Shown: positions 5,762-54,969, counted from the stretch's first letter. The stretch is 64,000 nucleotides of DNA from an uncultured Clostridium sp. (GCA_947245515.1 CAMXQV010000004.1:1167-65166); one strand, 5' to 3'. Translations and numbers: made by a program. The notes: generated from the letters alone by a model not told the origin.

Positions 5762-6922
5762 CTATTTCCAATACATACTGCTTAATTCTTTCAATTTTAT
5801 TTTTAAATCTTCTAGTTGATTATCAGAATAATTGTTTCTTAATACTCTAGCTTTTTCAGACCATTCTTTGAACTGCTTTTCTTTAAATTCCTTTGAATGA
5901 TTATAATGTAATCCATGCATTCTTTTATATTCTCTGTTATATTCCTTTAGAATTAAGCTATTTTTGACTTTTTCTTTTTGTTTATTTAATGCTCCAATTT
6001 GTTTACAAGTTTTTCCAGTATTTGAGTACAAGTTATTGCAATATTTTTGATTATTTCTTCCTTTTTGATTTGGATTATTACTAGTAGTGGTGGGTATAAA
6101 TAATCTACCACAATTTTCACATTTGTTTATAGTAAAGTTGTTTTGAATAACTTTAAATAACTCAAACCTAATTTGTTCTTCTGTATTTTGTAATTCATAA
6201 ACTTCTTCTGCTACAATATGTTTTTCTTTCATTATTTCTACAATTCTTTCTACATCTAATCTTCTTTCCTCAAAAGATAATTCTGTATCACAAATATATT
6301 TTGTTTTGAATTTAGTATCAAGAAAAAGAGCGTGAGTAGGTTTTGTATTAACATAGTGTATATCAAATACTCTTTTTGTTTCATATAAGAATAGTTTTTC
6401 AGGCACACTTAAATTTCTAACAAGAGAGTTATTAGAATATTTGCTAATCAATTCTAGTCTTTCTTTTAAATCCATTTTTTTCTCTATTAAATTTTCTATT
6501 AATAAATCTCTCATAGTTTCAAAAAATTTCATATATTCATTATGTTTTTTATCTGATATTTTATCTATTTCTTGAACCCATTTCATAAGTAAAATCTGTG
6601 TAGTATATTCATCTTCTTCTAATTCACGAAATATATCACTAGGATAATATTTTGAGTTTTCTATAAAAACACCAATTTGAGATTTGAACAATAAATCTGA
6701 TCTAAAGATTTTTGTATTATAGGTTTTTATAATTATATCTATTAGTACTTGTGTGTAAAAATGTGTATATGGAGAAAATTTTAGACATGCTCTAACAATT
6801 TGAAACATTTTTAAGAAACAATCTATCTTTTCATCTTCAGAATCAGTTTCTTTAGAATAACATACAAGTTCTATAAGCTGTGTGTACATTGCTTTCAATT
6901 TATCAAAATCTTCATAACTCAT
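5762..6922 (-). CDS. Hypothetical protein with a C-terminal zinc-ribbon-like motif (resembles the clostridial DUF6076 family)
   Basis: CENCGRLFIP...YCNN...GKTCKQIGALNKQKEKVKNSLILKEYNREYKRMHG is a pattern I associate with DUF6076 proteins found next to recombinases. This was not verified. The N-terminus is probably longer (see finding). Confidence 0.55.
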   Translation of the reverse strand: MSYEDFDKLKAMYTQLIELVCYSKETDSEDEKIDCFLKMFQIVRACLKFSPYTHFYTQVLIDIIIKTYNTKIFRSDLLFKSQIGVFIENSKYYPSDIFRELEEDEYTTQILLMKWVQEIDKISDKKHNEYMKFFETMRDLLIENLIEKKMDLKERLELISKYSNNSLVRNLSVPEKLFLYETKRVFDIHYVNTKPTHALFLDTKFKTKYICDTELSFEERRLDVERIVEIMKEKHIVAEEVYELQNTEEQIRFELFKVIQNNFTINKCENCGRLFIPTTTSNNPNQKGRNNQKYCNNLYSNTGKTCKQIGALNKQKEKVKNSLILKEYNREYKRMHGLHYNHSKEFKEKQFKEWSEKARVLRNNYSDNQLEDLKIKLKELSSMYWK

Positions 6923-7121
6923 TATAGCAAATTCATATAATTTATCTCCAATATTATATTCAAAATCACCAATAGCACCAAAATATTCTCCGAGTATTTT
7001 TTATTATAATTTTATTATTGTTAAGCGTGAAATTAGTTATCATATCAATATTTCCTCCATTTTGAAAATAGAATATAGCTATTTCAATTTTTAAGTTATC
7101 TATAGACTTACAAAAATCTAT

Positions 7122-7149
7122 TTACAACACTATTTTAGCATCTTATAAT
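7122..7149 (+). promoter_or_regulatory. Sigma-A-type promoter candidate
   Basis: TTACAA, a 16-nt spacer, then TATAAT (7144-7149). Confidence 0.35.
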
Positions 7150-7384
7150 GATTTTATCAAGATAGAAAATAGCATTTCAAGATATCTATTTTCTATTTGC
7201 ACATAGTACATTGAAAATTGAATAGCAAGTTACAAGCACAGATAATGAAACTTTCGTCTGGCTAACGTGATGTAAAGGGGCGATTCTCTAAAAAGAGTAA
7301 TGAGGGCAAATCTCATATGGGTATAATTTACCACTTGTAACTTTAAAAATTAAAAGTAATATTTTTAAACTTTTAATAATAGTA

Positions 7385-7591
7385 TTGAAAAGAAGGAAGG
7401 TGAGAATTTTGAAAAAGAGTTTGAATATTACATTTATTAATCCTAATACAGAAGAACAGATAGTACAAGCTATGTCTGGAGTTCTTGCATATAATTTAGC
7501 TGAGAATGATGAAAACATAAAATTTTGCTACAACAATTCAAATACTTATCAAAATTCTCACGAGGAAATAGAAGATGAATTAGAATTGTAA
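7385..7591 (+). CDS. Small hypothetical protein (start uncertain)
   Basis: ORF only (non-ATG start in the track). Acidic C-terminus, no recognisable domain. Confidence 0.3.
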   Translation: MKRRKVRILKKSLNITFINPNTEEQIVQAMSGVLAYNLAENDENIKFCYNNSNTYQNSHEEIEDELEL

Positions 7592-7744
7592 AGAATGGAA
7601 AAAATTAAACAATTTTGTTAAAAATATTGATTATAAAATCACAGTATGATACAATACAAATGTTCGTGGCAATATATTAACAAAAAATAGATAACTATTT
7701 AGAAATTTAAAAGCGAATAATTAATTTAAATGGAGGTATGTAAT

Positions 7745-8239
7745 ATGGGAACAAATTATTATTTTACACCAAAAAAATTTGAATTGAATAGAGTGAAAAA
7801 GTTACATGAAGATTATTCTTCTAAGATGGACAAACTTTTAAATGATTATATAAAATCATATAACAAACTATGTAATGAAATGTCAAAAGAAACAAATGAT
7901 TTATTTGATAATGAAGAATTGCCAGGCTATAAAGATTGGTATAACTATATGCATTTAGCAGAAATAGAATATCCTGAATTACATATATGTAAAATAAGTA
8001 TGGGGTGGAAGCCACTATTTCAAGCAACAAAATTTTATAATAGTGTGCAAGAACTGAAAGATTTTTATTATAAAAATAAAGATAGAATAATAATAAAAGA
8101 TGAATATGGAGAAGAACAAGGTATAGATGAATTATTTGAATTTATAGATATTAAATATAAAGATAAAAAAAGTCAATCTCATACAGATGCTTACAAAGAC
8201 CAACAAGGATATGAGTGGGTATCGAATAATTTTTCTTAA
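7745..8239 (+). CDS. Hypothetical protein
   Basis: A GGAGGT RBS at 7733-7738 lies 6 nt before the ATG at 7745 (MGTNYYF...). No family recognised. Confidence 0.5.
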   Translation: MGTNYYFTPKKFELNRVKKLHEDYSSKMDKLLNDYIKSYNKLCNEMSKETNDLFDNEELPGYKDWYNYMHLAEIEYPELHICKISMGWKPLFQATKFYNSVQELKDFYYKNKDRIIIKDEYGEEQGIDELFEFIDIKYKDKKSQSHTDAYKDQQGYEWVSNNFS

Positions 8240-8301
8240 ATTTGTTTTGAAATATAGATAAAATTAGTAAAATGTAGTATAATAGAAAGAGAGGTTGGTT
8301 T

Positions 8302-8743
8302 ATGCTAAAATTACATTTAGATAATTGTTGCTATAATAGACCATTTGATGATTTAAGACAAGAAAAAATCAAGTTAGAAGCTCGGAGCAATAGAAACAAT
8401 TATTGATATGTATTTAAATAAAGAAATAAAGATATATACAAGCAGAGCTATTGACTATGAAATAGATAATATTTCTGCTGGGAATAAAAAGAGACAAATT
8501 GAAGATTTATATGATGGTTTAGAAATAGAGAAGATACCATATTCATATGAAATAAAGGAAAGAGTACAGGAATTAAAAAGATTTAATATTCATTATATGG
8601 ATGCATATCATATAGCTTATGCTGAAAGCAAAAATTTGAATTATTTTATAACAGTTGATAAACAATTAATAAATGCTTGCAAAAGAGCAAATTTAGAATT
8701 AAAGGTAGTAAATCCTATGGAATTTATAATGGAGGTGATATAA
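8302..8743 (+). pseudogene. PIN-domain ribonuclease (type II toxin-like), disrupted by a +1 frameshift near 8378-8386
   Basis: Frame 1 reads MLKLHLDNCCYNRPFDDLRQEKIKLEA... to TGA at 8404-8406. Frame 2 continues ...AIETIIDMYLNKEIKIYTSRAIDYEI...MDAYHIAYAE...FITVDKQLI. Together they make one PIN domain with its conserved acidic residues. Confidence 0.7.
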
Positions 8744-8947
8744 ATGGCAGTAACAGTTAAAGATTTAGAGAAAATTAGACAAGAAGGTCTTAAAGCACTA
8801 AGAGAAAAATTAGGGCCAATAGGTATGATAAAATTTATACAAATGTATAGTGATGGTGAAGGAGACTATACTGAAGAAAGAAGAGAAAAATTAAAAGATT
8901 TAAAAGAAGAAGATTTGGAAGCTTTTTTAAGTGAAGAGTTGAATTAG
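8744..8947 (+). CDS. Small partner protein of the PIN gene (putative antitoxin)
   Basis: The ATG directly abuts the PIN stop. GLKALREKLGPIGMIKFIQMYSDGEGDYTEER matches the small proteins I recall paired with NRPFDD-type PIN proteins. Confidence 0.55.
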   Translation: MAVTVKDLEKIRQEGLKALREKLGPIGMIKFIQMYSDGEGDYTEERREKLKDLKEEDLEAFLSEELN

Positions 8948-8981
8948 CCCAATATTAGACATAGACTCTATTTGCGGAAAA

Positions 8982-9026
8982 GAAAAAACTATTCTCAAAA
9001 AGAGAGTAGTTTTTTCTTGCTTTTTT
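8982..9026 (+). terminator. Rho-independent terminator
   Basis: GAAAAAACTATTCTC pairs with GAGAGTAGTTTTTTC (one G-U pair), then TTGCTTTTTT. Confidence 0.6.
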
Positions 9027-9098
9027 GCAACTGATATGCTAAAATGTAACAGAACGAAAACAAAGTTACAGATAATAAAAACAAGAAAGAGTGATGTT

Positions 9099-10745
9099 AT
9101 GAAAATTGCAGCATATGCAAGAGTTTCAACTGAAAAAGAATCACAAGTTGAATCATTTGAAAAGCAAATAGAATTTTTTAATGAATTTACAAAAAAGAAT
9201 GGTTATGAATTGTACAAGCTATATGCAGATGAAGGAATATCAGGAAAGCAAATAAAACACAGAAAGCAGTTTCAACAAATGATGCAAGATGCTAAGCATA
9301 AGAAATTTGATAAAGTAGTTGTAAAAGATGTAAGCCGTTTTGCAAGAAATACAGTAGATTTATTGCAAAGCATAAGAGAACTTAAATCTTATGGAATTGA
9401 AGTAGATTTCTTAAACAATGGAGAAATAATGGAAGGTGGATCTGAGTTTATACTAACCATTTTAGGGGCAATGGCACAGCAAGAAAGTGCAAATATGTCT
9501 AAAAGGGTTAAATTCGGAAAAGACATCACTGCAAAAAAAGGAAGAGTTCCTAACATTGTATTTGGATATGACAAGATACCAGATGAGAGATACATGTTAA
9601 AAATAAATGAAGAAGAAGCAAAAATTGTAAAAGAAATATTTGAAAGCTATGTATATAAAGGAATTGGAACAACAAAAATTGCTTGGGACTTAAATGATAG
9701 AGGAATAAGAACGAAAAAAACAAAATCAAAATGGGTACAAACCTCTATCGTAAGAATGCTTAAAAATCCAATTTATATCGGAAGAGTAACCAATAAAAAA
9801 TCAGAAGTAACAGACTTTATAACAGGAACAAGAAAAGATTTACCAGAAGAAGAATGGATAACAGTAGAAAGACCAGAAATGAGAATTATATCAGATGAGT
9901 TATTTAATAGAGCACAAGAAATACTAGCTCAAAGGTCAAACGAATTTAAACTAAACAATAAAAGAGAAAAAACAGAATATGTATTTAGTACACTTATCTA
10001 TTGCAAACATTGTGGATATTCATTTAGAAGAATAAGAAGAAAATACACAGAAGACGGCAAAGAATATATAAGATGGGTATGTAGTGGAAGAAATTCAATG
10101 GGTGTAAATCATTGTCCTAATACAACTGTTATTGATGAAGAAGAACTTTTAAATGCTATAAAAGAATATTTAAAAAGCATCATTTCAAATAAAAAGAACT
10201 TTATGAAAGCAGTTGAGAAAGAATTTGAAAAGATTACAAAATTAAGAGAAGCGGGTGAAAGAAGCGAAGAAAGTCTTTTACAAGAGATAGAAAAGGTAAC
10301 AGTAAAAAAACAAAAGTATATGGAGATGTTCCAAAACGAAGTAATCAATATACAAGAATTAAAAAAATACACTAATCCATTAAATGAAGATGTAGCAAGA
10401 TTAGAGCGAGAGCTAAAACTAATCACATCAGAAATAAAAGAAAAAGATGTATTAGAAAAAGAACTATCAAAAACAATTAGCACAGTAGATGATATTTTAA
10501 ACAACAAAACAATTACAAATGCTATGTTAAAAACAATCATAGATGTAATAGAAGTAGATAGTGACTCAAATGTAGAAGTAAGACTAAAATTATTAAATGA
10601 AATAGGAAGTACACCATCAGTTATAACTAATTTTAATGAAATCGAAACCAATGTAGGGGCGAGCATTGCTCGTCCGCAAAACGAAAATAATGACATTAAT
10701 TCAACCGTTACGAAAAGTAACAACAGTACACAAAGATGTTTCTGA
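9099..10745 (+). CDS. Large serine recombinase (resolvase/invertase N-terminal domain plus recombinase and zinc-ribbon domains)
   Basis: MKIAAYARVSTEKESQ...SFEKQ (catalytic Ser motif), VVVKDVSRFARN, and a CKHCGYSF...WVCSG...HCPN zinc ribbon with a coiled-coil tail. The ATG at 9099 is preferred over the 9036 track start. The stop lies inside spoIIID-derived DNA. Confidence 0.9.
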   Translation: MKIAAYARVSTEKESQVESFEKQIEFFNEFTKKNGYELYKLYADEGISGKQIKHRKQFQQMMQDAKHKKFDKVVVKDVSRFARNTVDLLQSIRELKSYGIEVDFLNNGEIMEGGSEFILTILGAMAQQESANMSKRVKFGKDITAKKGRVPNIVFGYDKIPDERYMLKINEEEAKIVKEIFESYVYKGIGTTKIAWDLNDRGIRTKKTKSKWVQTSIVRMLKNPIYIGRVTNKKSEVTDFITGTRKDLPEEEWITVERPEMRIISDELFNRAQEILAQRSNEFKLNNKREKTEYVFSTLIYCKHCGYSFRRIRRKYTEDGKEYIRWVCSGRNSMGVNHCPNTTVIDEEELLNAIKEYLKSIISNKKNFMKAVEKEFEKITKLREAGERSEESLLQEIEKVTVKKQKYMEMFQNEVINIQELKKYTNPLNEDVARLERELKLITSEIKEKDVLEKELSKTISTVDDILNNKTITNAMLKTIIDVIEVDSDSNVEVRLKLLNEIGSTPSVITNFNEIETNVGASIARPQNENNDINSTVTKSNNSTQRCF

Positions 10746-15097: not shown

Positions 15098-15253
15098 TTT
15101 ATTGACTAATTAAATTTATTAATAAATAATTTAAATTTTAGTTTTTAAGGTTAGTTCTATATTAGAACTAACCTTAAAAAAATAAAATTTCATTTAAAAG
15201 GCTATTGAATAATTTTGTTATATTTATTATAATAAAAATAAATAGGAGGAAAT

Positions 15254-16390
15254 ATGAAAGAAAGTCCAGAATTAAAAGAATTAAATATAAGATTATTAGA
15301 AATAATAAAGGATTGCAAATCAGAAGAAGGAGTAACTAAATTACAAGAAATATATGACAATTTAAATGGAAATCAATCCTTACAAGTAACAGGATTTAAA
15401 GAAAAGGTAAAGAATTTTTTGCATAATTTATCTTCTAAGTATAAAATGCAAAAGATACAAGAGAAAATAGAGCTAGCAAAGGGGGAAACCCTAGATGCAA
15501 TTAAAAAATATATATTTACTACAAACATAATGAAAAAGAGTAATAGTATAATAAAGGACATGCCATCTGACTTAGCAGTATCTATTAATAATGTATTAGA
15601 TTTAGGATTAGGTTTAGAATTTAGTGACAAAACAGTAAAACGATATCCAATTATATTATCACAAGAAATAAAAGAAAAGGGATATGATAAAGCAATAAAT
15701 ATAATGGCAAAAAATTATTTAGATAATTCTACTACTCAAGAGCAAATTATACAAAGATATAGAGCACAATGTAGAAAAAAAGTAAGCGATATAGAAGATA
15801 AAAGTAGAGGTTATGAAATAGAACCATATTATGGAACTAAAGAATTAATGGAATCTAGAATTCAATATATAAAAGAATGTATGGAGAAGATGTTACAAGC
15901 AGAAGAGTTTAAAGGTAGAGAGGATATAAAAGATCATATAAGTAGAACTAGTGAAATATTGTCAGAATATGAGAATGCCTCATTAAGTAGTAAATCTATT
16001 GAAGAACAAAAAGGTACTTATAAAAAGTTAGAAACTTTTTATAAAGAAGTAATAGATCTGGAAGAAAAATTATCTCCAGAAGTAGCAAAAGTTTGGAAAG
16101 AAAAAATATCTTCAGTTGAGCAATATTCTAAAGATAAAGATTTTGCATTCTTAGCACGTACAATTACAAATGGAGAAAAAGATATAAAAGACGTAAAAAA
16201 GATATCTACACAATATATTACATCAAAAACACTAACCTTAAAGGGAGATTATGGAGTTTTATATACACCAAATATAGATAATATAGTTGCAATATCTTCA
16301 GAAGATGTACAAAATTGGAAGATATCAAAAGAAGACTTTATTAATAGCCGGATTTTCAAAAGAATATCAATATGCAACACCTATAGATGA
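15254..16390 (+). CDS. Hypothetical protein, probable 5' part of a frameshifted gene
   Basis: An AGGAGG RBS precedes the ORF. No family recognised. It overlaps the next ORF by 104 nt in another frame. Confidence 0.5.
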   Translation: MKESPELKELNIRLLEIIKDCKSEEGVTKLQEIYDNLNGNQSLQVTGFKEKVKNFLHNLSSKYKMQKIQEKIELAKGETLDAIKKYIFTTNIMKKSNSIIKDMPSDLAVSINNVLDLGLGLEFSDKTVKRYPIILSQEIKEKGYDKAINIMAKNYLDNSTTQEQIIQRYRAQCRKKVSDIEDKSRGYEIEPYYGTKELMESRIQYIKECMEKMLQAEEFKGREDIKDHISRTSEILSEYENASLSSKSIEEQKGTYKKLETFYKEVIDLEEKLSPEVAKVWKEKISSVEQYSKDKDFAFLARTITNGEKDIKDVKKISTQYITSKTLTLKGDYGVLYTPNIDNIVAISSEDVQNWKISKEDFINSRIFKRISICNTYR

Positions 16391-16748
16391 TCAAGGAAAT
16401 AGGATATTTTTTGAATTTCCAGCTACACAATCAACTTTAGCATTACCAGATGATATAGAAAAAGAAACCATTAATAGAACACTAGAAGAAAATGGAGAAA
16501 TGCTAAATTATGATAAAGAAACTCCATGTAACAGAATTGTAATGACGAATAAAAATGAGGACTTAAATCAACTTGCAGTATTTACAATATCGAAGAACCC
16601 AACAACAATAAAAAAAGCAAAAGCTTTGAGTGAAAAATTAGGAATTCCTTTTGTTGAGATTGACAAAGAAATATGTAGAGAAAGATGTGGATTAAATCCT
16701 TTAACAGAAAAAGAAACAAAACAAAAAAGAGAGGGTCAAAGTTTGTAA
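16287..16748 (+). CDS. Hypothetical protein, probable 3' part of the same frameshifted gene
   Basis: There is no RBS of its own, and its frame is open across the overlap with 15254-16390. Confidence 0.4.
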   Translation: MQYLQKMYKIGRYQKKTLLIAGFSKEYQYATPIDDQGNRIFFEFPATQSTLALPDDIEKETINRTLEENGEMLNYDKETPCNRIVMTNKNEDLNQLAVFTISKNPTTIKKAKALSEKLGIPFVEIDKEICRERCGLNPLTEKETKQKREGQSL

Positions 16749-16791
16749 GGTACAAAATTTATTAGTCAAAAATTAAAAGGAGAATTTTAGA

Positions 16792-17109
16792 TTGTACTAT
16801 ATTTATATGTTAAGATGTAAGGATAATTCGATATATACTGGAATAACAAAGGATTTACAGAGAAGAATGAAGGAGCATTTTGAAAAAAGTGAAAAATGTG
16901 CAAAATATACCTTAAGTCATAATGCAATTAAATTGGAAAGAGTTTGGGAAACTACTACAAAATCTTTTGCATCAAAACTAGAATATTATATAAAAAAATT
17001 ATCAAAAGCTAAAAAGGAAAGTTTAGCGAAAGGCAATAGTGAAATTGAAGATGTTTTATTAGATAAAATAGATGAAACTTTATATAGTATATATGTATTT
17101 AAAAAGTGA
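16792..17109 (+). CDS. GIY-YIG nuclease family protein (UPF0213-like)
   Basis: YYIYMLRCKDNSIYTGITKDLQRRMKEH is the GIY-YIG motif. The start is TTG, with a GGAG RBS 9 nt upstream. Confidence 0.8.
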   Translation: MYYIYMLRCKDNSIYTGITKDLQRRMKEHFEKSEKCAKYTLSHNAIKLERVWETTTKSFASKLEYYIKKLSKAKKESLAKGNSEIEDVLLDKIDETLYSIYVFKK

Positions 17110-17156
17110 TTGTGTATATTGCTAATTAGTTTATAAAATAGAGGAGGAAACCCAAT

Positions 17157-17606
17157 ATGATTAATGTAGTAATAGGTATAATTACTTATGGAGATAAAAT
17201 ATTATTAATAAAAAGAGAAAGAGGAGATTTTATAGGTCTTTATGGATTACCAGGAGGAAAAGTTGAAGAGTGTGAACACATAGATGTAGCAATAAAAAGA
17301 GAGATTGAAGAAGAACTAGGCTTGAAATTAAAATTTAATAGTGTATTAGGTATTGCTACAGAAATCATGCATGATAAAAACTCAACTACTATATTATATT
17401 GTTGTGAATTATTAATGGACACAAATCAAGAAATATCAAATCCTGAATTTGAATATAAATGGTTTTCAAAACAAGAATTAATCAATTCCAATTCTATTAT
17501 AGAAAGTGACAAAATAATGATAAAGAGTTTTTATAGTGATAAAGAAACAAATTATATAAAACTAGATTGTTATAAAGATGAAGAGGAAAGATATTTTTGG
17601 AAATAA
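17157..17606 (+). CDS. NUDIX hydrolase
   Basis: Nudix box GLPGGKVEECEHIDVAIKREIEEELGL. Confidence 0.85.
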   Translation: MINVVIGIITYGDKILLIKRERGDFIGLYGLPGGKVEECEHIDVAIKREIEEELGLKLKFNSVLGIATEIMHDKNSTTILYCCELLMDTNQEISNPEFEYKWFSKQELINSNSIIESDKIMIKSFYSDKETNYIKLDCYKDEEERYFWK

Positions 17607-17644
17607 CTATTATAATATATAAAATTGATAATGTCTAATATTAT

Positions 17645-17868
17645 AAGGCAATCGCTTAAAATTTTAATTATTTATTTGTTTATATTCGAGAAATCTACTC
17701 GCTCCCAAAGGATTATAATTATTTATTGTTTTCGTTGCCCCATTCTCAAAATTCTATAGAAAAGTTTTCTAACTTTTCTAAGAATTTTGGAACGGTTACC
17801 CCGGAGTCACTCAAAAATAAATAATTATAATCCTTCTTGTGCTATTCTTAATTAAATAATATGTTTAT
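17645..17868 (+). repeat. Large structured repeat, copy A (right outer arm missing); copy B at 54589-54969
   Basis: A ~145-bp core is identical to 54733-54870. It contains the perfect inverted repeat GGATTATAATTATTTATT / AAATAAATAATTATAATCC and an inner palindrome CAAAATTCT.TAGAAAAGTT-TTCT-AACTTTTCTA.AGAATTTTG. Confidence 0.8.
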
Positions 17869-18097
17869 GATAAGGAAAGTACACCTATTTATTATGTATT
17901 AGAAGGAATGGGATAAAAAACTGAAAAGATATCAAAAATATAAGTTGATTATTGTAAGATTTTAAATTCATTGACAAAATAATTATAGTTAAGTTAAAAA
18001 AATTACAATTTTTTACATAAAATTCACTTAAGGGAATGATAAAAATATATTTTTATGGTAAAATCATAGAAAAAAACTAGTAGATAGGAGAGTAAAT

Positions 18098-21000
18098 ATG
18101 TTAGCACAAGAAGTTATGGTAAAAGAGATAGAGAAATATTTAACTATGTTAATTACATATGCAAAATCAAATTCTAGAATGAATTTAACAGATATAGGGA
18201 TTGTTAGTGAAAATTTCTTTAGTGAATTATTAAATAAGCTATATGGATACAAACTGATTAATGCAAATTCAGAAGAAAAAAATTTTGCTGGAATAGATTT
18301 GATAGATAGAGAAAATAAAATATGCTATCAAGTAACATTAGATAGTGATGCAGATAAAGTACAAAGTACGATAAGCATGTTTATAAAGAAAGAATATTAC
18401 AAGGATTTTCAACATTTGTTTGTATTAGTAATAGATGATCCAAAGAGATATAATAAAAAATTTGATACTGAAGGTAAGTTTGTATTTGACAAGAATAAAG
18501 ATATTATATTTCCATTAAAACAAATCATTGATGATATTAGAAATGTTAGAGATTTAGATAAATTGAATAAGATATATAGCTTTTTTAGAAGCTCATTTTA
18601 TTATGAAAATTTTGATAGAGGGTATGAATGGTATAAAAATCAAAATGAGAAGAACATTTTAAATTTAGGTTGCAGATATAATAAAGAAATTAACATTGAT
18701 ACTACAATTGTAAAAAAAATGGCAGTATTTTTAAAAGAAGAAGAACGAATGAATACAATGGCACATGAATTGAAGGAACTTATTATAAAGTTAGTACAAA
18801 ATTCTGGATTATTTCAAGAGAAAAAAATCATAGAGAAAGCTAAAGAATTATTTAAAAACATTATGTTAGGTAATTATAGTTGGGATAAAGTAAATGAATT
18901 TTTAAAAGAATTAGATGAGGCTTTATATAAGGAGTTTGAAAGACTTAACAATTCATCAATAAATTATGATATATATAATAAAATATCAGATATCAGAAGT
19001 TTAAATGAAGATTTAATTGAAGGGTTATCTTATTTATTTAAAAAAGTAATGATTATAACAGGGGAAATGGGCATTGGAAAATCTCACTTAATAGCTAATT
19101 GGATTGATAAATATTGCATACCAAAACAAATAAATGCAATTTTATTGTTAGGACAGATGATGAATGAAGCTAATTCATTTACATTACAAATGAAAAATGA
19201 ATTAGGTATAGAAGAAAACTTTGAGAAATTTCTAGCAGCACTAGATGCAATAGGAAGAGAGAAAAAAGTCATAGTACCATTTTTTATTGATGCATTAAAT
19301 GAAAGCCAATACTATGAAAAATGGGCAGATAACATAAATGGAATAGTAAATGAATTTTCAAAGTATAAAAATATAAAACTAATTCTAACAATAAAGGAAG
19401 ATTTTAAAGGAAAATGCTTACCTAATAATATGGATCAGGAAAATGTTATAACAGTTTTACATAGGGGATTTGCAGAAAATACATATGAAGCCATGAATGA
19501 GATATTTTCATATTATAAAGTTGAACTACCATTATTTCCAGTCATAAATGAAACATATTCAAATCCTCTATTCTTAATTACAATGTGTAAATGTATAAAT
19601 AAAAATAGAATCAACTTATTACTACAAGATTATTCAGATTTTAACTTGATTTTTGATGAGTATTTAAAAAATATAAATTATGAGATATCTAAAAAACTGA
19701 AATATTCAGAAAAAGAAAATTTAGTGGTACAAATTTTAGATATTGTAGCAAAATATATGGTAGATAATAAAATACAGTATATAACTAAAATTAATTTTTT
19801 AAAAATTATCAAAGATCATTTATCACTATATAATATTGCTCCTATGCATATATTGGAATATTTTATTTCCGAAAACATTTTATATAAATCAATAGATTAT
19901 AAAACAAGAGAGGAGATAGTATATTTTACATATGAAAAATACAATAGTATAATTAAATCTAAGTATATATTAAAAGATTTTCATGACAGAGACAGTATTA
20001 TAGAAAATCAGAAATTAAAAGATATGTTTGATTATGAAAATGAATTATATGATGGAAATATTATAGAAAACTTGCTTATATACATAGGTAATAATTTTGG
20101 AATAGAATTATATGATATATTGGATTATAAATTAGACAAATATAGAAATGTTATAAGAATATATATGAGAAGCTTAATGTGGAGAAAAAAAGATAATTTT
20201 GATATAGAAGGAAAATTTAAAGAATTTTTTGATTATGTAGTAGCTAGAGAACATGACTTTTACTATAATTATGTGGAATTATTATTTACATGTGCAGTAA
20301 TTGGAAGTAGTCCATTTAATATATATAAAATTAATCAAAAATTATTAGATATGTCTTTAATAGAAAGAGATAGTAGTTGGACAATAATGCTAGATGAGCA
20401 TATAGAAGACTCAATACAAAGAATATTAGATTATTGTTTTAGAGCTGATTTAAGTGGAATGCATAAAGATAATAGACTTATGCTATCTATAACTCTATCA
20501 TGGATGTTAAGTAGTTCAAATAGAAAATTAAGAGATTTAGCAACAAAAGCTTTAGTAATTACATTGACAAATAATTTAGAAACAATGGTGGATATCATTC
20601 AAAATTTTAAGGATGTTAATGATATGTACATATTAGAAAGAATATATGGTGCATGTTATGGTGCAATATTAAGGAGTAGTAATTTAGATAAATTAAATGA
20701 ACTAGTTGAAAAGATTTATTCTGAAATATTCAATAAAGAAGAGGTAATAGCTAATGTTGTCATTAGAGATTATGCAAGGCAAATTATACTTTATGCTAAG
20801 TATAAGAAAATAGAAATGTCTTTTAATATTGAAAGAATTAATCCACCATATAAGAGTAAATGGTATGAAGAAATTCCAACTAATGAGCAAATTAAAAAAT
20901 ATGACATTAACTATGATGATGCTAAAGATAAAAAGTATCTATATGCACAATACAGGATAGTAAGCTCAATGATTACTGAATATGGAAGAGGTACAGGAGG

Positions 21001-22189
21001 ATATGGTGATTTTGGAAGATATGTGTTTGAAAGGTTAGTTAGACCGTGGAAATATAAATTTGATAATCCTCAAGATTTAAGTAACATAGTTATAAAAAGA
21101 GTATTTGATATGGGATATGATGCAAAAATATTTGGAAATTATGATATGAATGTTAGCCCACATGACAGACATAATAATTGTACTGAACGAATTGGAAAAA
21201 AATATCAGTGGATAGCTACATATGAATTATTAGCCAAGTTACAAGATAAATATAAGATTTTTACAGAGGTATATCCAGAAGAGGAAGAGCTAGATTTTAA
21301 TAGTAATATTTATTTAAATAGTAAATATGAAAAGACAGAAGTACTCGAAGATATTAGATATAAAGAAGATGTATATCAATTTTTAGATTTTGGTTATTTA
21401 AGAAATATAGATGTTACAAGTACATTAACAAAGCTTGAGAGAAAAGAGTATGAAATTTTAGATATAGTAGATAAAGAATGGATAAATGAAGATATAGATG
21501 TTGAGAAATATATTGAAAACTCAAATGAATATATTTCTTTGTGTGCATGTTATCATTATAGAAGTGATGCCATAGAATTGAAAGATATTACATCAAATTT
21601 TGATAGACATAGAAATAGTATTTCTTTAACAGTAATGTATCATGCATGTTTAGTTAATAAGGAATATAAAATAATACAAAAGGATATGGAAGGATTTATG
21701 GATTATAATATTCATTCTAATTTTGATGTCTTATTAAGAGAATATGTATGGTCTAAGTATTATGATGAAGCAGTTAAATATTTAGAGAAAAAGTCCAAAA
21801 GTTGCAATATATATCCTGTGTTTTCTAACTATTTATTTGAGCCATTATATGATAATTCAATAGAAAATGCAATTTCTATGTTTGTTCCATCAAAAATGTT
21901 GATAGAAGAATTAAAACTTAATCAAAGAGAGGATGGATATTGGTATAATGAAGATGGAATATTAGTATGTTATGATAATAAACTAAAAGGACAAGAAAGT
22001 AATTTTATCTTTAATAAGGATATTTTATATAATTATTTAGAAAAGAAAAACTTTAAATTAATATGGAAAGGCTACATTGATAAAAGTAACAAAAGAGAGT
22101 TTAGAGATTATCACTTTATAATTTTGAAAGAAGATGATAAATACAAAATTAAAAAAGAAAATGAGACAAGAGGGACATTAACTTTATAG
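18098..22189 (+). CDS. 1363-aa protein with an N-terminal SMEK-like domain, a P-loop STAND-type NTPase and a long helical C-terminal region (candidate defence NTPase)
   Basis: aa ~25-115: NLTDIGIVSENFFSELLNKLYGY...NFAGIDLID...ICYQVT. Walker A is GEMGIGKS (nt 19061-19084). Walker B is VPFFIDALNE (nt 19274-19303). About 950 further aa are mostly helical. Confidence 0.75.
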   Translation: MLAQEVMVKEIEKYLTMLITYAKSNSRMNLTDIGIVSENFFSELLNKLYGYKLINANSEEKNFAGIDLIDRENKICYQVTLDSDADKVQSTISMFIKKEYYKDFQHLFVLVIDDPKRYNKKFDTEGKFVFDKNKDIIFPLKQIIDDIRNVRDLDKLNKIYSFFRSSFYYENFDRGYEWYKNQNEKNILNLGCRYNKEINIDTTIVKKMAVFLKEEERMNTMAHELKELIIKLVQNSGLFQEKKIIEKAKELFKNIMLGNYSWDKVNEFLKELDEALYKEFERLNNSSINYDIYNKISDIRSLNEDLIEGLSYLFKKVMIITGEMGIGKSHLIANWIDKYCIPKQINAILLLGQMMNEANSFTLQMKNELGIEENFEKFLAALDAIGREKKVIVPFFIDALNESQYYEKWADNINGIVNEFSKYKNIKLILTIKEDFKGKCLPNNMDQENVITVLHRGFAENTYEAMNEIFSYYKVELPLFPVINETYSNPLFLITMCKCINKNRINLLLQDYSDFNLIFDEYLKNINYEISKKLKYSEKENLVVQILDIVAKYMVDNKIQYITKINFLKIIKDHLSLYNIAPMHILEYFISENILYKSIDYKTREEIVYFTYEKYNSIIKSKYILKDFHDRDSIIENQKLKDMFDYENELYDGNIIENLLIYIGNNFGIELYDILDYKLDKYRNVIRIYMRSLMWRKKDNFDIEGKFKEFFDYVVAREHDFYYNYVELLFTCAVIGSSPFNIYKINQKLLDMSLIERDSSWTIMLDEHIEDSIQRILDYCFRADLSGMHKDNRLMLSITLSWMLSSSNRKLRDLATKALVITLTNNLETMVDIIQNFKDVNDMYILERIYGACYGAILRSSNLDKLNELVEKIYSEIFNKEEVIANVVIRDYARQIILYAKYKKIEMSFNIERINPPYKSKWYEEIPTNEQIKKYDINYDDAKDKKYLYAQYRIVSSMITEYGRGTGGYGDFGRYVFERLVRPWKYKFDNPQDLSNIVIKRVFDMGYDAKIFGNYDMNVSPHDRHNNCTERIGKKYQWIATYELLAKLQDKYKIFTEVYPEEEELDFNSNIYLNSKYEKTEVLEDIRYKEDVYQFLDFGYLRNIDVTSTLTKLERKEYEILDIVDKEWINEDIDVEKYIENSNEYISLCACYHYRSDAIELKDITSNFDRHRNSISLTVMYHACLVNKEYKIIQKDMEGFMDYNIHSNFDVLLREYVWSKYYDEAVKYLEKKSKSCNIYPVFSNYLFEPLYDNSIENAISMFVPSKMLIEELKLNQREDGYWYNEDGILVCYDNKLKGQESNFIFNKDILYNYLEKKNFKLIWKGYIDKSNKREFRDYHFIILKEDDKYKIKKENETRGTLTL

Positions 22190-22204
22190 AAAAATAGGGG
22201 TTGT

Positions 22205-22280
22205 AAAAAAAGTTCCAACAAAAAATGAGATTCAAGTTAAAATTATAACTTAAATCTCATTTTTTGTTGGAACTTTTTTT
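22205..22280. terminator. Long perfect hairpin (bidirectional terminator)
   Basis: AAAAAAGTTCCAACAAAAAATGAGATT pairs with AATCTCATTTTTTGTTGGAACTTTTTT, flanked by A and T runs. Confidence 0.7.
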
Positions 22281-22292
22281 AGAATCCCTACT

Positions 22293-22501
22293 TTAATCTT
22301 CTTTTCTCAATAGCTGAAAATTCGTCACAATACATAAGTCAAATTTCCGTTTAAATGCTATATCATCTTCTATCTCCATAATTTGTTTCATAGATGTGAT
22401 GTGATTTTTTTGGATAAAACATATTCAGAATTTCCAACACCAGTTTGAGTATTGTTTGATTTCCAGAAGTTAAAGCTAATAAAGTAGTAGTATTTTTTCA
22501 T
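22293..22501 (-). pseudogene. Small ORF disrupted by a frameshift (remnant)
   Basis: A GGAGGC RBS precedes the ATG at 22501: MKKYYYFISFNFWKSNNTQTGVGNSEYVLSKKITSHL*. A second frame continues MKQIMEIEDDIAFKRKFDLCIVTNFQLLRKED*. An A7 run lies just upstream of the first-frame stop, near the frame change. Confidence 0.35.
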
Positions 22502-22643
22502 AAAAGCCTCCTATGGGGTGGTGAGTATATAAAATTAAATAGTATTTATAATAAAGATATATTGTAGTAAATGATGCCTTTACAATTTGTATATTGTGTG
22601 TATATTACGCAGTAGTTTTTGACTGCTTTTAATGACTTTTACT

Positions 22644-22683
22644 AAAATAAAAGAAAAGCAGTAATACCAATGATTACCGCTTT
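22644..22683 (-). terminator. Rho-independent terminator of rpsI
   Basis: On the minus strand, AAGCGGTAAT pairs with ATTACTGCTT, followed by TTTTCTTTTATTTT. Confidence 0.55.
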
Positions 22684-22724
22684 GTATATAGGTTTTTGAC
22701 CTTTGCTCCAAAACCCACTTGTTT

Positions 22725-54588: not shown

Positions 54589-54969
54589 TAAGTTAAAGAT
54601 AGATATATGTTTTTTTTTGACTTTTAAACTAAATACAAATTATATCAATTTAAATTAATTATATTTTACAAATTAAAAGTCAATAGAATTAAGGTAATCG
54701 ATTAAAATTTTAATTATTTATTTGTAATTATAAAATCTACTCGCTCCCAAAGGATTATAATTATTTATTGTTTTCGTTGCCCCATTCTCAAAATTCTATA
54801 GAAAAGTTTTCTAACTTTTCTAAGAATTTTGGAACGGTTACCCCGGAGTCACTCAAAAATAAATAATTATAATCCTTCTCGCACTATTCTTAATTAAATA
54901 TAAACAAATAAAAAATTAAAATTATAAACGATTTCCTTACAAAAAAATTATATATCTATCTTTAACTTA
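54589..54969. repeat. Large structured repeat, copy B (complete ~380-bp nested palindrome)
   Basis: Outer arms TAAGTTAAAGATAGATATAT (54589-54608) / ATATATCTATCTTTAACTTA (54950-54969). Middle arms TAAGGTAATCGATTAAAATTTTAATTATTTATTTG / CAAATAAAAAATTAAAATTATAAACGATTTCCTTA. The core is identical to copy A. There is a side hairpin GACTTTTAA...TTAAAAGTC. Confidence 0.85.

Follow-up and report, generated by a model that had tools for sequence, protein, structure and literature searches.

A 64,000-nucleotide stretch of DNA from an uncultured Clostridium sp. (GCA_947245515.1 CAMXQV010000004.1:1167-65166; the whole of it is called the window below) contains, at positions 18098-22189 on the + strand, a single uninterrupted open reading frame (ORF) that starts with ATG and encodes 1363 amino acids (aa) before its stop codon. 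A preliminary description, made from the sequence, had read it as a stand-alone gene in a small accessory islet, joining a SMEK domain to a STAND nucleoside triphosphatase (NTPase) in the effector-STAND-sensor layout of Avs and NLR-like proteins. We recovered the same ORF and found no recurring partner gene; profile searches detected the SMEK domain as well as the STAND module, and comparison with an empty site showed that the nearest related genome lacks the gene. The description considered that no subtype could be assigned. Judged by its sequence, however, the protein is a member of the known Avs2 (AVAST type 2) family of antiviral STAND NTPases, equipped with a SMEK effector. The features of the locus are listed in Table 1.

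The Walker motifs, the segment containing ERIGKKYQW (ERIGKKYQWIATYELLAKL at aa 1030-1048) and the N-terminal strings that had been singled out (aa 29-53 and 62-82) all lie where the description placed them. Over 15.6 kb, the window and an ENA metagenome contig (L001) are identical but for one mismatch. This non-synonymous difference falls in codon 102 (18401-18403), at a non-conserved position of the SMEK domain, and gives K102 in the window and N102 in the contig.

Table 1. Coordinates of the Avs2 gene, its domains and the surrounding features in the window
Feature	Position	Strand	Evidence
Complete Avs2-family gene	18098..22189	+	ORF list, PADLOC PDLC02162, PDB 9o4e
Ribosome-binding site AGGAGAG	18086..18092	+	5 nt before ATG, read from sequence
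SMEK effector domain, N-terminal, aa 1-166, predicted nuclease	18098..18595	+	Pfam PF21941, 26bh match, AlphaFold2
Helical extension linking effector to NTPase, aa 167-315 (LGxRYNKE motif, aa 190-197)	18596..19042	+	PADLOC Avs2 profile
STAND NTPase nucleotide-binding core, aa 316-480 (Walker A GEMGIGKS, aa 322-329; Walker B VPFFIDALNE, aa 393-402)	19043..19537	+	Motifs, EcAvs2 alignment
Other NTPase subdomains and alpha-helical TPR-like sensor, aa 481-1053 (ERIGKKYQW, aa 1030-1038)	19538..21256	+	EcAvs2 alignment
Beta-strand-rich C-terminal sensor, aa 1054-1363	21257..22186	+	AlphaFold2, Foldseek, EcAvs2 residues 1342-1440
Avs2 cassette, 4.68-kb segment absent from L012	17909..22587		blastn against L012
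Cupin gene remnant, 51 bp	17858..17908	+	94% identity to L012 5649-5699, inside Cupin_2 ORF
Dispersed structured repeat, ~220 nt	17644..17862		Second copy at ~54686-54904, ~37 kb away, 93-94% identical
Palindrome, 52-nt arms, 28-bp perfect core stem flanked by A and T runs	22191..22294		Repeat search, 90% complementary
Two overlapping short ORFs, 37 and 32 aa	22293-22501	-	Within inserted cassette, preceded by good ribosome-binding site

Assignment to Avs2

Six PADLOC models of Avs2 match the window protein. The best, PDLC02162 (E=5.1e-217), aligns aa 165-1330 with profile positions 159-1342 of 1379, and another reaches E=1e-212. The solved structure of EcAvs2, the AVAST type 2 protein of E. 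coli (PDB 9o4e, cryo-electron microscopy with the PhiV-1 terminase; bioRxiv 10.64898/2026.04.30.721860), is matched at E=9.7e-90 in three blocks extending as far as the C-terminus (aa 317-934, 996-1062 and 1228-1324), the region of aa 481-1053 aligning to EcAvs2 residues 337-962 and 1103-1169. The NCBIfam Avs2 model NF041813 aligns with aa 188-979 at 629 bits. Taken together, the PADLOC, NCBIfam and 9o4e matches indicate that everything downstream of the effector is Avs2, that is, the helical extension, the STAND NTPase, the TPR-like domain and the C-terminal domain.

Two points weigh against the reading as an Avs2 defence protein. The score of 629 bits falls below the equivalog cut-off of NF041813, set at 1000 bits, and we found no experiment on any SMEK-bearing Avs2 in the literature accessible to this analysis. 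The missed cut-off concerns strict equivalog naming and leaves family homology unaffected, and it explains why RefSeq names the SMEK-type relatives just 'SMEK domain-containing protein'. We consider the assignment to defence strong. The SMEK-bearing proteins constitute an Avs2 subclade that the NCBI equivalog model does not name, and the window protein is new to a known family.

Residue conservation in the Avs2 part was assessed across 16 aligned SMEK-Avs2 proteins, the window protein included. Residues G322, G325, G327, K328 and S329 of Walker A and D398, N401 and E402 of Walker B are invariant, as are L190, R193 and Y194 in the helical extension, whose LGxRYNKE motif is found in most Avs2 relatives. 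The family motifs LGxRY, YGDFGRY and ERIGKKYQW are all intact in the window protein. Pfam returned weak matches of the NTPase core to AAA_14, AAA_22 and NPHP3_N.

The closest non-identical proteins, likewise SMEK-Avs2 fusions with lengths near 1350 aa, are just 40-42% identical. A neighbour-joining tree built from the NTPase and sensor portions gathers the SMEK-bearing proteins into a single large group, within which a clade with a different helical N-terminal domain is nested; relatives with other N-terminal domains (Q-A-K nuclease-like, SIR2, transmembrane or EcAvs2-type) fall elsewhere. This pattern is the effector shuffling typical of Avs families. The window protein itself sits on a long branch, and its sensor is only about 25-30% identical to those of characterised Avs2 proteins.

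Members of the SMEK type include a chromosomal gene of Staphylococcus xylosus and a plasmid gene of Staphylococcus equorum, annotated simply as encoding a 'SMEK domain-containing protein', and more distant plasmid homologues are called avs2 by the NCBI annotation pipeline. Homologues occur on 113 plasmid records. One adjoins an HpaII restriction-modification system (P0004), another lies among helicase, DUF3800 and ABC-F genes (P0002) and a third beside an arsenic-resistance operon (P0017). The contexts of the homologues are variable, often defence-linked or plasmid-borne, and not those of a conserved housekeeping operon.

Could the gene belong to a multi-gene system, as does KpAvs2 of Klebsiella pneumoniae? 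Neighbouring genes differ in every homologue context examined, with no recurring partner, and we therefore rejected this possibility.

The SMEK effector domain

Pfam family PF21941 matches aa 10-146 at E=1.1e-38 (132.7 bits for a cut-off of 27, profile positions 1-138 of 140), and the NCBIfam model SMEK_N (NF033859) agrees at E=5e-29 (99.9 bits for a cut-off of 30). The N-terminal domain is thus a true SMEK domain, as had been recognised from its residue pattern. The attribution of this domain to Kaur et al. 2020 could not be verified, the word SMEK being absent from the main text and from one supplement of that article.

A word-indexed homologue search with aa 1-175 alone returned no match, and an exhaustive search of representatives then gave 2865 cluster representatives at E<=1e-3. 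In these relatives the SMEK domain is almost always N-terminal. Roughly half of the listed representatives are short proteins of about 200-420 aa, many of them near 320 aa; others are P-loop proteins of about 900 aa, NACHT/STAND proteins and TPR proteins. Conservation within the domain was derived from 31 diverse SMEK domains, which also served to build a profile. Six residues (N55, N62, D67, L68, Q78 and K87) are invariant across this set and six more (E38, N46, N57, D70, T80 and T91) nearly so, all twelve being present in the window protein.

The 31-member profile matches only one solved structure, 26bh, over the whole domain and with E=1e-37; the window protein alone reaches E=3.5e-11. This structure is the effector domain of an APAZ protein of Kordia jejudonensis, described by its depositors as 'the Mrr domain from Kordia jejudonensis Mrr-APAZ pAgo'. 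In the literature this same protein goes by the name SMEK-APAZ, and its complex with the short Argonaute (KjAgo) is reported to cleave DNA; SMEK also figures among the nuclease effectors of both short Argonaute and short Lamassu systems (PMC12663957 for Lamassu). The PADLOC model that matches the SMEK domain is labelled 'REase'.

An AlphaFold2 model of the N-terminal domain (predicted local distance difference test score, pLDDT, 83.8) shows an alpha-beta-beta-alpha-beta order over aa 31-111, with a helix at 31-49, strands at 68-70 and 75-80, a second helix at 85-97 and a strand at 106-111. The alpha-beta-beta-beta-alpha-beta core of PD-(D/E)xK enzymes is matched in part, the model resolving no more than two strands ahead of its second helix. 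Residues E38, D67, Q78 and K87 lie on or beside the alpha-beta-beta-alpha elements. In this model the layout resembles a PD-(D/E)xK active site, except that Thr80 occupies the place of the usual lysine. The invariant K87, seven residues after T80, might stand in for the canonical lysine, and we retain E38, D67, D70, Q78, T80 and K87 as candidate active-site residues.

Is SMEK then a DNase in this protein? Several observations speak against it. The lysine of the canonical (D/E/Q)xK motif is missing: the window protein has D67...Q78-V-T80, and Thr is found at this position throughout the SMEK family. Foldseek gave no significant match of the N-terminal domain in the PDB (best E=0.28, in a library that evidently lacks 26bh), so that the restriction-endonuclease fold is argued from sequence homology to 26bh and from the order of secondary structures. 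The nuclease activity of the Kordia SMEK-APAZ complex is described as weak, and the domain shows no similarity to the Q-A-K nuclease-like N-terminal domain of other Avs2 relatives. The domain might instead cut RNA, or be non-catalytic, serving only to oligomerise or to recruit another factor. We find this quite improbable. The (near-)invariance of E38, D67, D70, Q78 and K87, and the position of four of them on or beside the helices and strands of the model, are what would be expected of a restriction-endonuclease-type site with a relocated lysine. The weak Foldseek list itself consists mostly of restriction-endonuclease-fold enzymes (EcoT38I with a TM-score of 0.41, PspGI, Vsr, the PA endonuclease, BamHI and NucS), and a nuclease role is further favoured by the name Mrr given to 26bh, the PADLOC label and the treatment of SMEK in the Argonaute and Lamassu literature.

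We also considered whether SMEK is the same 'Mrr-like' nuclease as that found in most Avs2 proteins, and rejected this: hhalign compared it with the Q-A-K-motif N-terminal domains of other Avs2 relatives at a probability of 0.2. These domains have no Pfam match of their own. Given the lack of similarity in hhalign, we take SMEK and the Q-A-K domain as separate effector cassettes.

The C-terminal sensor and its predicted ligand

About 950 residues following the NTPase motifs had been described as largely helical, with no C-terminal domain identified. In the part modelled here, the helical character holds up to about aa 1051 and gives way beyond it. We modelled aa 935-1363 with AlphaFold2 from a 38-sequence alignment (pLDDT 82.7); the model is helical from aa 935 to ~1051 and then folds into a beta-rich domain from ~aa 1054 to 1363. 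When this model was compared with the PDB, the only significant Foldseek matches were two chains of 8dgc, the complex of SeAvs3 with a phage terminase (E=7.6e-7, probability 1.0), the next match having E=0.05. On the strength of the model, the region can be identified as the Avs2 TPR-like sensor followed by a beta-rich C-terminal sensor common to Avs3.

Two residues through which EcAvs2 contacts its ligand are kept in the alignment, R1132 as R1024 and E1362 as E1248. For a third contact, D981, the probable counterpart is D971, the Asp that is invariant in YGDFGRY. Direct alignment of the window protein failed in the D981 region because of an EcAvs2 insertion there, and this equivalence was reached by analogy, through an EcAvs2-like homologue (P0030). 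The ERIGKKYQW motif comes directly after the loop that aligns with the bridging-ATP loop of EcAvs2 (T1128-R1132).

A terminase ligand has evidence against it as well. Three of the six EcAvs2 contacts with the bridging ATP and terminase are not kept (T1128 is replaced by P1021, R1130 by H1022 and E1364 by L1250), leaving three at most that are plausibly retained, and overall identity to EcAvs2 is low. KpAvs2 is triggered in vivo by non-terminase proteins, Ksap1 among them (PMC11564622), and EcAvs2 by the ATPase-like protein vs.8. The natural trigger of this Avs2-type sensor could thus be another one, for instance a small Ksap-like protein or some other phage protein with an ATPase fold, and the long branch and low sensor identity reported above point the same way. 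We regard such a trigger as unlikely. The C-terminal fold by which Avs2 and Avs3 alike bind the terminase ATPase is retained in the window protein, and the most conserved motifs (YGDFGRY, RHxNxxERIGKKYQW and YxWExxxDxS) surround the ATP-bridging loop. Moreover, EcAvs2 recognises terminases sharing less than 10% identity, so a divergent sensor need not mean a new ligand.

A hypothetical protein of Staphylococcus phage UPMK_1 (MG543995.1 102931-104856) resembles the sensor region alone, with 32% identity to aa 611-1282 (E=8e-59), and may represent a decoy or a piece of sensor carried by the phage.

Proposed mechanism

With the domain architecture, the family membership from profiles and fold, the conservation of motifs and the variable presence in a cargo hotspot observed here, we believe that the locus is best explained as a single-gene antiphage pattern-recognition receptor of the Avs2 family, operating as outlined below (probability roughly 0.78). 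The trigger, tetramerisation, nuclease chemistry and abortive outcome are transferred by homology from EcAvs2, KpAvs2 and SeAvs3. EcAvs2 forms a flat, terminase-bound tetramer with an ATP in each NTPase and a helical extension that contacts the terminase, and KpAvs2 degrades DNA non-specifically and causes abortive infection (Bechon et al., Nat Commun 2024, PMC11564622).

The resting protein would be an inactive monomer. Upon infection, the helical extension, the TPR-like domain and the beta-rich C-terminal sensor would form a pocket for a conserved phage protein. The likeliest ligand is the large-terminase ATPase domain, and a bridging ATP may take part as it does in EcAvs2. Binding would lead the ATP-loaded NTPase domains to assemble into a tetramer, with the participation of K328 of Walker A and of D398 and E402 of Walker B. 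The tetramer would bring four SMEK domains together and thereby switch on a non-specific nuclease; DNA would be degraded and the infected cell would die or stop growing before phage release. The trigger is the least secure step of this scheme, since half of the EcAvs2 contacts have no conserved counterpart.

Insertion site and the yunB-rpsI gap

We fetched 14 loci of related uncultured gut Clostridia by means of the neighbouring sporulation protein SipL. The nearest related genome (L012), with a SipL 94% identical to that of the window and identical RpsI and RplM (100%), displays the same gene order, sipL-yunB-p378-GIY-YIG-NUDIX ... rpsI-rplM, but has no Avs2 gene: its NUDIX-rpsI gap measures 974 bp, as against 5119 bp in the window. 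In blastn alignments, homology between the two stops at 17908 and resumes at 22588, with 314 unrelated bp lying between these points in L012. At this site L012 has an intact 118-aa Cupin_2 ORF (L012 5519-5875), of which the window keeps a 51-bp remnant, the 5' part of the cupin gene having its place taken by the dispersed repeat. Acquisition of the Avs2 cassette hence cost the site a resident gene. Evidence at the insertion site is clean and bears out the accessory nature of the islet. Base composition gives no signal of foreign DNA, the Avs2 gene having about 23-25% G+C and its flanks being alike.

In this gut Clostridia lineage, the gap between yunB and rpsI (15098-22724 in the window; L012-L025) serves as a hotspot for cargo genes. 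Among relatives more distant than L012, it is empty in two loci (~70 bp; L020 and L025), holds just a GIY-YIG gene in two (L014 and L015), a HepT/MNT-like toxin-antitoxin pair in two more (L016 and L018) and an HNH-like gene in another (L023); the p378, GIY-YIG and NUDIX genes appear in varying order in other loci. We found no integrase within the gap.

Such variation bears on whether the gene is functional at all. An inactive relic or a non-defence housekeeping gene might be suspected from the promoter scan, which did not exceed shuffled background (59 sites for 48 expected) and thus lends the defence reading no help, though it is uninformative in DNA so rich in A+T, and from the possibly frameshifted small ORF beside the Avs2 gene. 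We hold this to be very improbable. No stop codon interrupts the 4.1-kb ORF although the genome, at about 25% G+C, is prone to acquire them; the Walker residues and family motifs are preserved and a good ribosome-binding site is present. The variable presence of the gene among close relatives and the changing neighbours of its homologues speak against a housekeeping role.

The NUDIX hydrolase gene directly upstream (17157-17606, +) matches the PADLOC candidate defence family PDC-S07 at E=4.6e-19, which may reflect generic NUDIX similarity. As L012 also has this gene, without Avs2, it is no partner of Avs2. Further upstream, a 378-aa protein (15254-16390, +) and an ORF of ~100 aa (~16440-16748, +) match no family in Pfam or PADLOC. 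L012 carries the 378-aa gene. L017 carries both genes, split and with their order relative to GIY-YIG changed, and we detected the 378-aa gene in none of the remaining related genomes.

On the far side of the ribosomal operon, one locus (L021 6829-9374) carries, between rplM and an nlpC-like gene, what its motifs suggest is a DpnII-like restriction-modification system, composed of two methylase genes, one apparently split, and an endonuclease. In the window itself, a more distant upstream region (5762-10745) contains a DUF6076 gene (5762-6922, -), a PIN-domain gene (8408-8743) and a large serine recombinase (9036-10745). They may indicate a distinct mobile element, or else an excision element under sporulation control, adjacent to yabG and veg.

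Flanking repeat, palindrome and small ORFs

The structured repeat upstream of the gene, first noted as truncated, is real and present in two copies. Both copies cover an equal extent, and there is thus no sign of truncation in the upstream one. It folds into a 20-bp outer stem around a second hairpin (RNA fold of -46.5 kcal/mol, z=-8.5). We found no credible Rfam family for it, either in the whole window at gathering thresholds or in 17600-18100 at relaxed thresholds, and an exact 28-mer of the repeat is absent from JGI metagenome contigs. Short-read assemblies containing the Avs2 gene break inside the repeat or just past it. We see it as a possible miniature mobile element or small RNA gene.

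Downstream, the perfect hairpin initially given a 26-bp stem does exist; its stem has 28 bp and is the core of a longer palindrome. The palindrome folds at -57 kcal/mol as RNA (z=-13.65) and is a probable two-way terminator; a simple terminator scan did not list it. Logan contigs stop about 60 bp past the stop codon, inside this palindrome.

The small ORF described as decayed corresponds to the two short ORFs of the minus strand. As for decay, there is a possible frameshift only, and no homologue search was made: the two ORFs could be one frameshifted gene of ~70 aa if a frameshift in an A-run is removed.

Significance for Avs2 annotation

The present assignment places a protein labelled 'SMEK domain-containing protein' or 'ATP-binding protein' in databases within the well-studied Avs2 family, and exposes an annotation gap, in that the NCBI Avs2 equivalog model misses an entire SMEK-bearing subclade. 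That one SMEK effector serves the sensors of short Argonaute, short Lamassu and Avs2 systems is a clear example of effector swapping among defence systems and links two literatures. The locus also offers a clean case of presence and absence of a defence gene in an uncultured gut Clostridium, in a hotspot beside the rpsI-rplM operon. Our understanding of Avs proteins is unchanged; the value lies in annotation and in the choice of a Firmicute Avs2 for experiments, and the novelty is modest.

A bolder proposal can be made, which we hold only tentatively and think unlikely to be borne out as a whole. SMEK-Avs2 proteins would constitute a branch of their own, mostly in Firmicutes, differing from characterised Avs2 in both input and output and located, here, at an integrase-free yunB-rpsI defence hotspot where cargo turns over by recombination. 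On the input side, the loss of half of the EcAvs2 bridging-ATP and terminase contacts suggests that SMEK-Avs2 may recognise a different conserved phage protein. On the output side, the non-canonical site (D...QxT with a relocated invariant lysine) suggests that its substrate or chemistry may not be plain cleavage of double-stranded DNA.

Comparison with known systems

EcAvs2 is, like the window gene, a single-gene system. The two proteins have the Walker A, Walker B and ERIGKKYQW motifs in common, their extension, STAND NTPase, TPR-like and C-terminal sensors align, and the equivalents of R1132 and E1362 are kept. They differ in the effector, which in EcAvs2 is another domain, uncharacterised and of non-enzymatic appearance, whereas the window protein has SMEK. 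The window protein also lacks about 60 residues of the EcAvs2 stretch between 962 and 1103, as well as the equivalents of T1128, R1130 and E1364.

KpAvs2 combines an Avs2 sensor with an N-terminal effector of the endonuclease type, as predicted for the window protein. However, its effector is an Mrr-family nuclease with the catalytic lysine K71, probably of the Q-A-K-motif type, and not SMEK, and it is encoded in a three-gene operon with Avap1 and Avap2, whereas the window gene has no conserved partners.

SeAvs3 (8dgc) has the beta-rich C-terminal fold that binds the terminase ATPase and the tripartite effector-STAND-sensor layout. Its TPR domain is different, its effector is a Cap4-type nuclease, its tetramer is elongated, not flat, and it shows no overall sequence match to the window protein.

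The SMEK-APAZ protein of Kordia jejudonensis (SPARDA-type, 26bh) has a homologous effector in which the equivalents of E38, D67, Q78, T80 and K87 are all conserved. There, however, the effector is carried on APAZ and activated through Argonaute by guide-RNA-directed recognition of DNA, whereas in the window protein it is attached to a protein-sensing STAND NTPase. Short Lamassu, where SMEK is found on LmuA (PNAS 2025, PMC12663957), uses the same effector family as a swappable N-terminal defence module; it senses DNA ends through an SMC-like complex, in place of the STAND protein found here.

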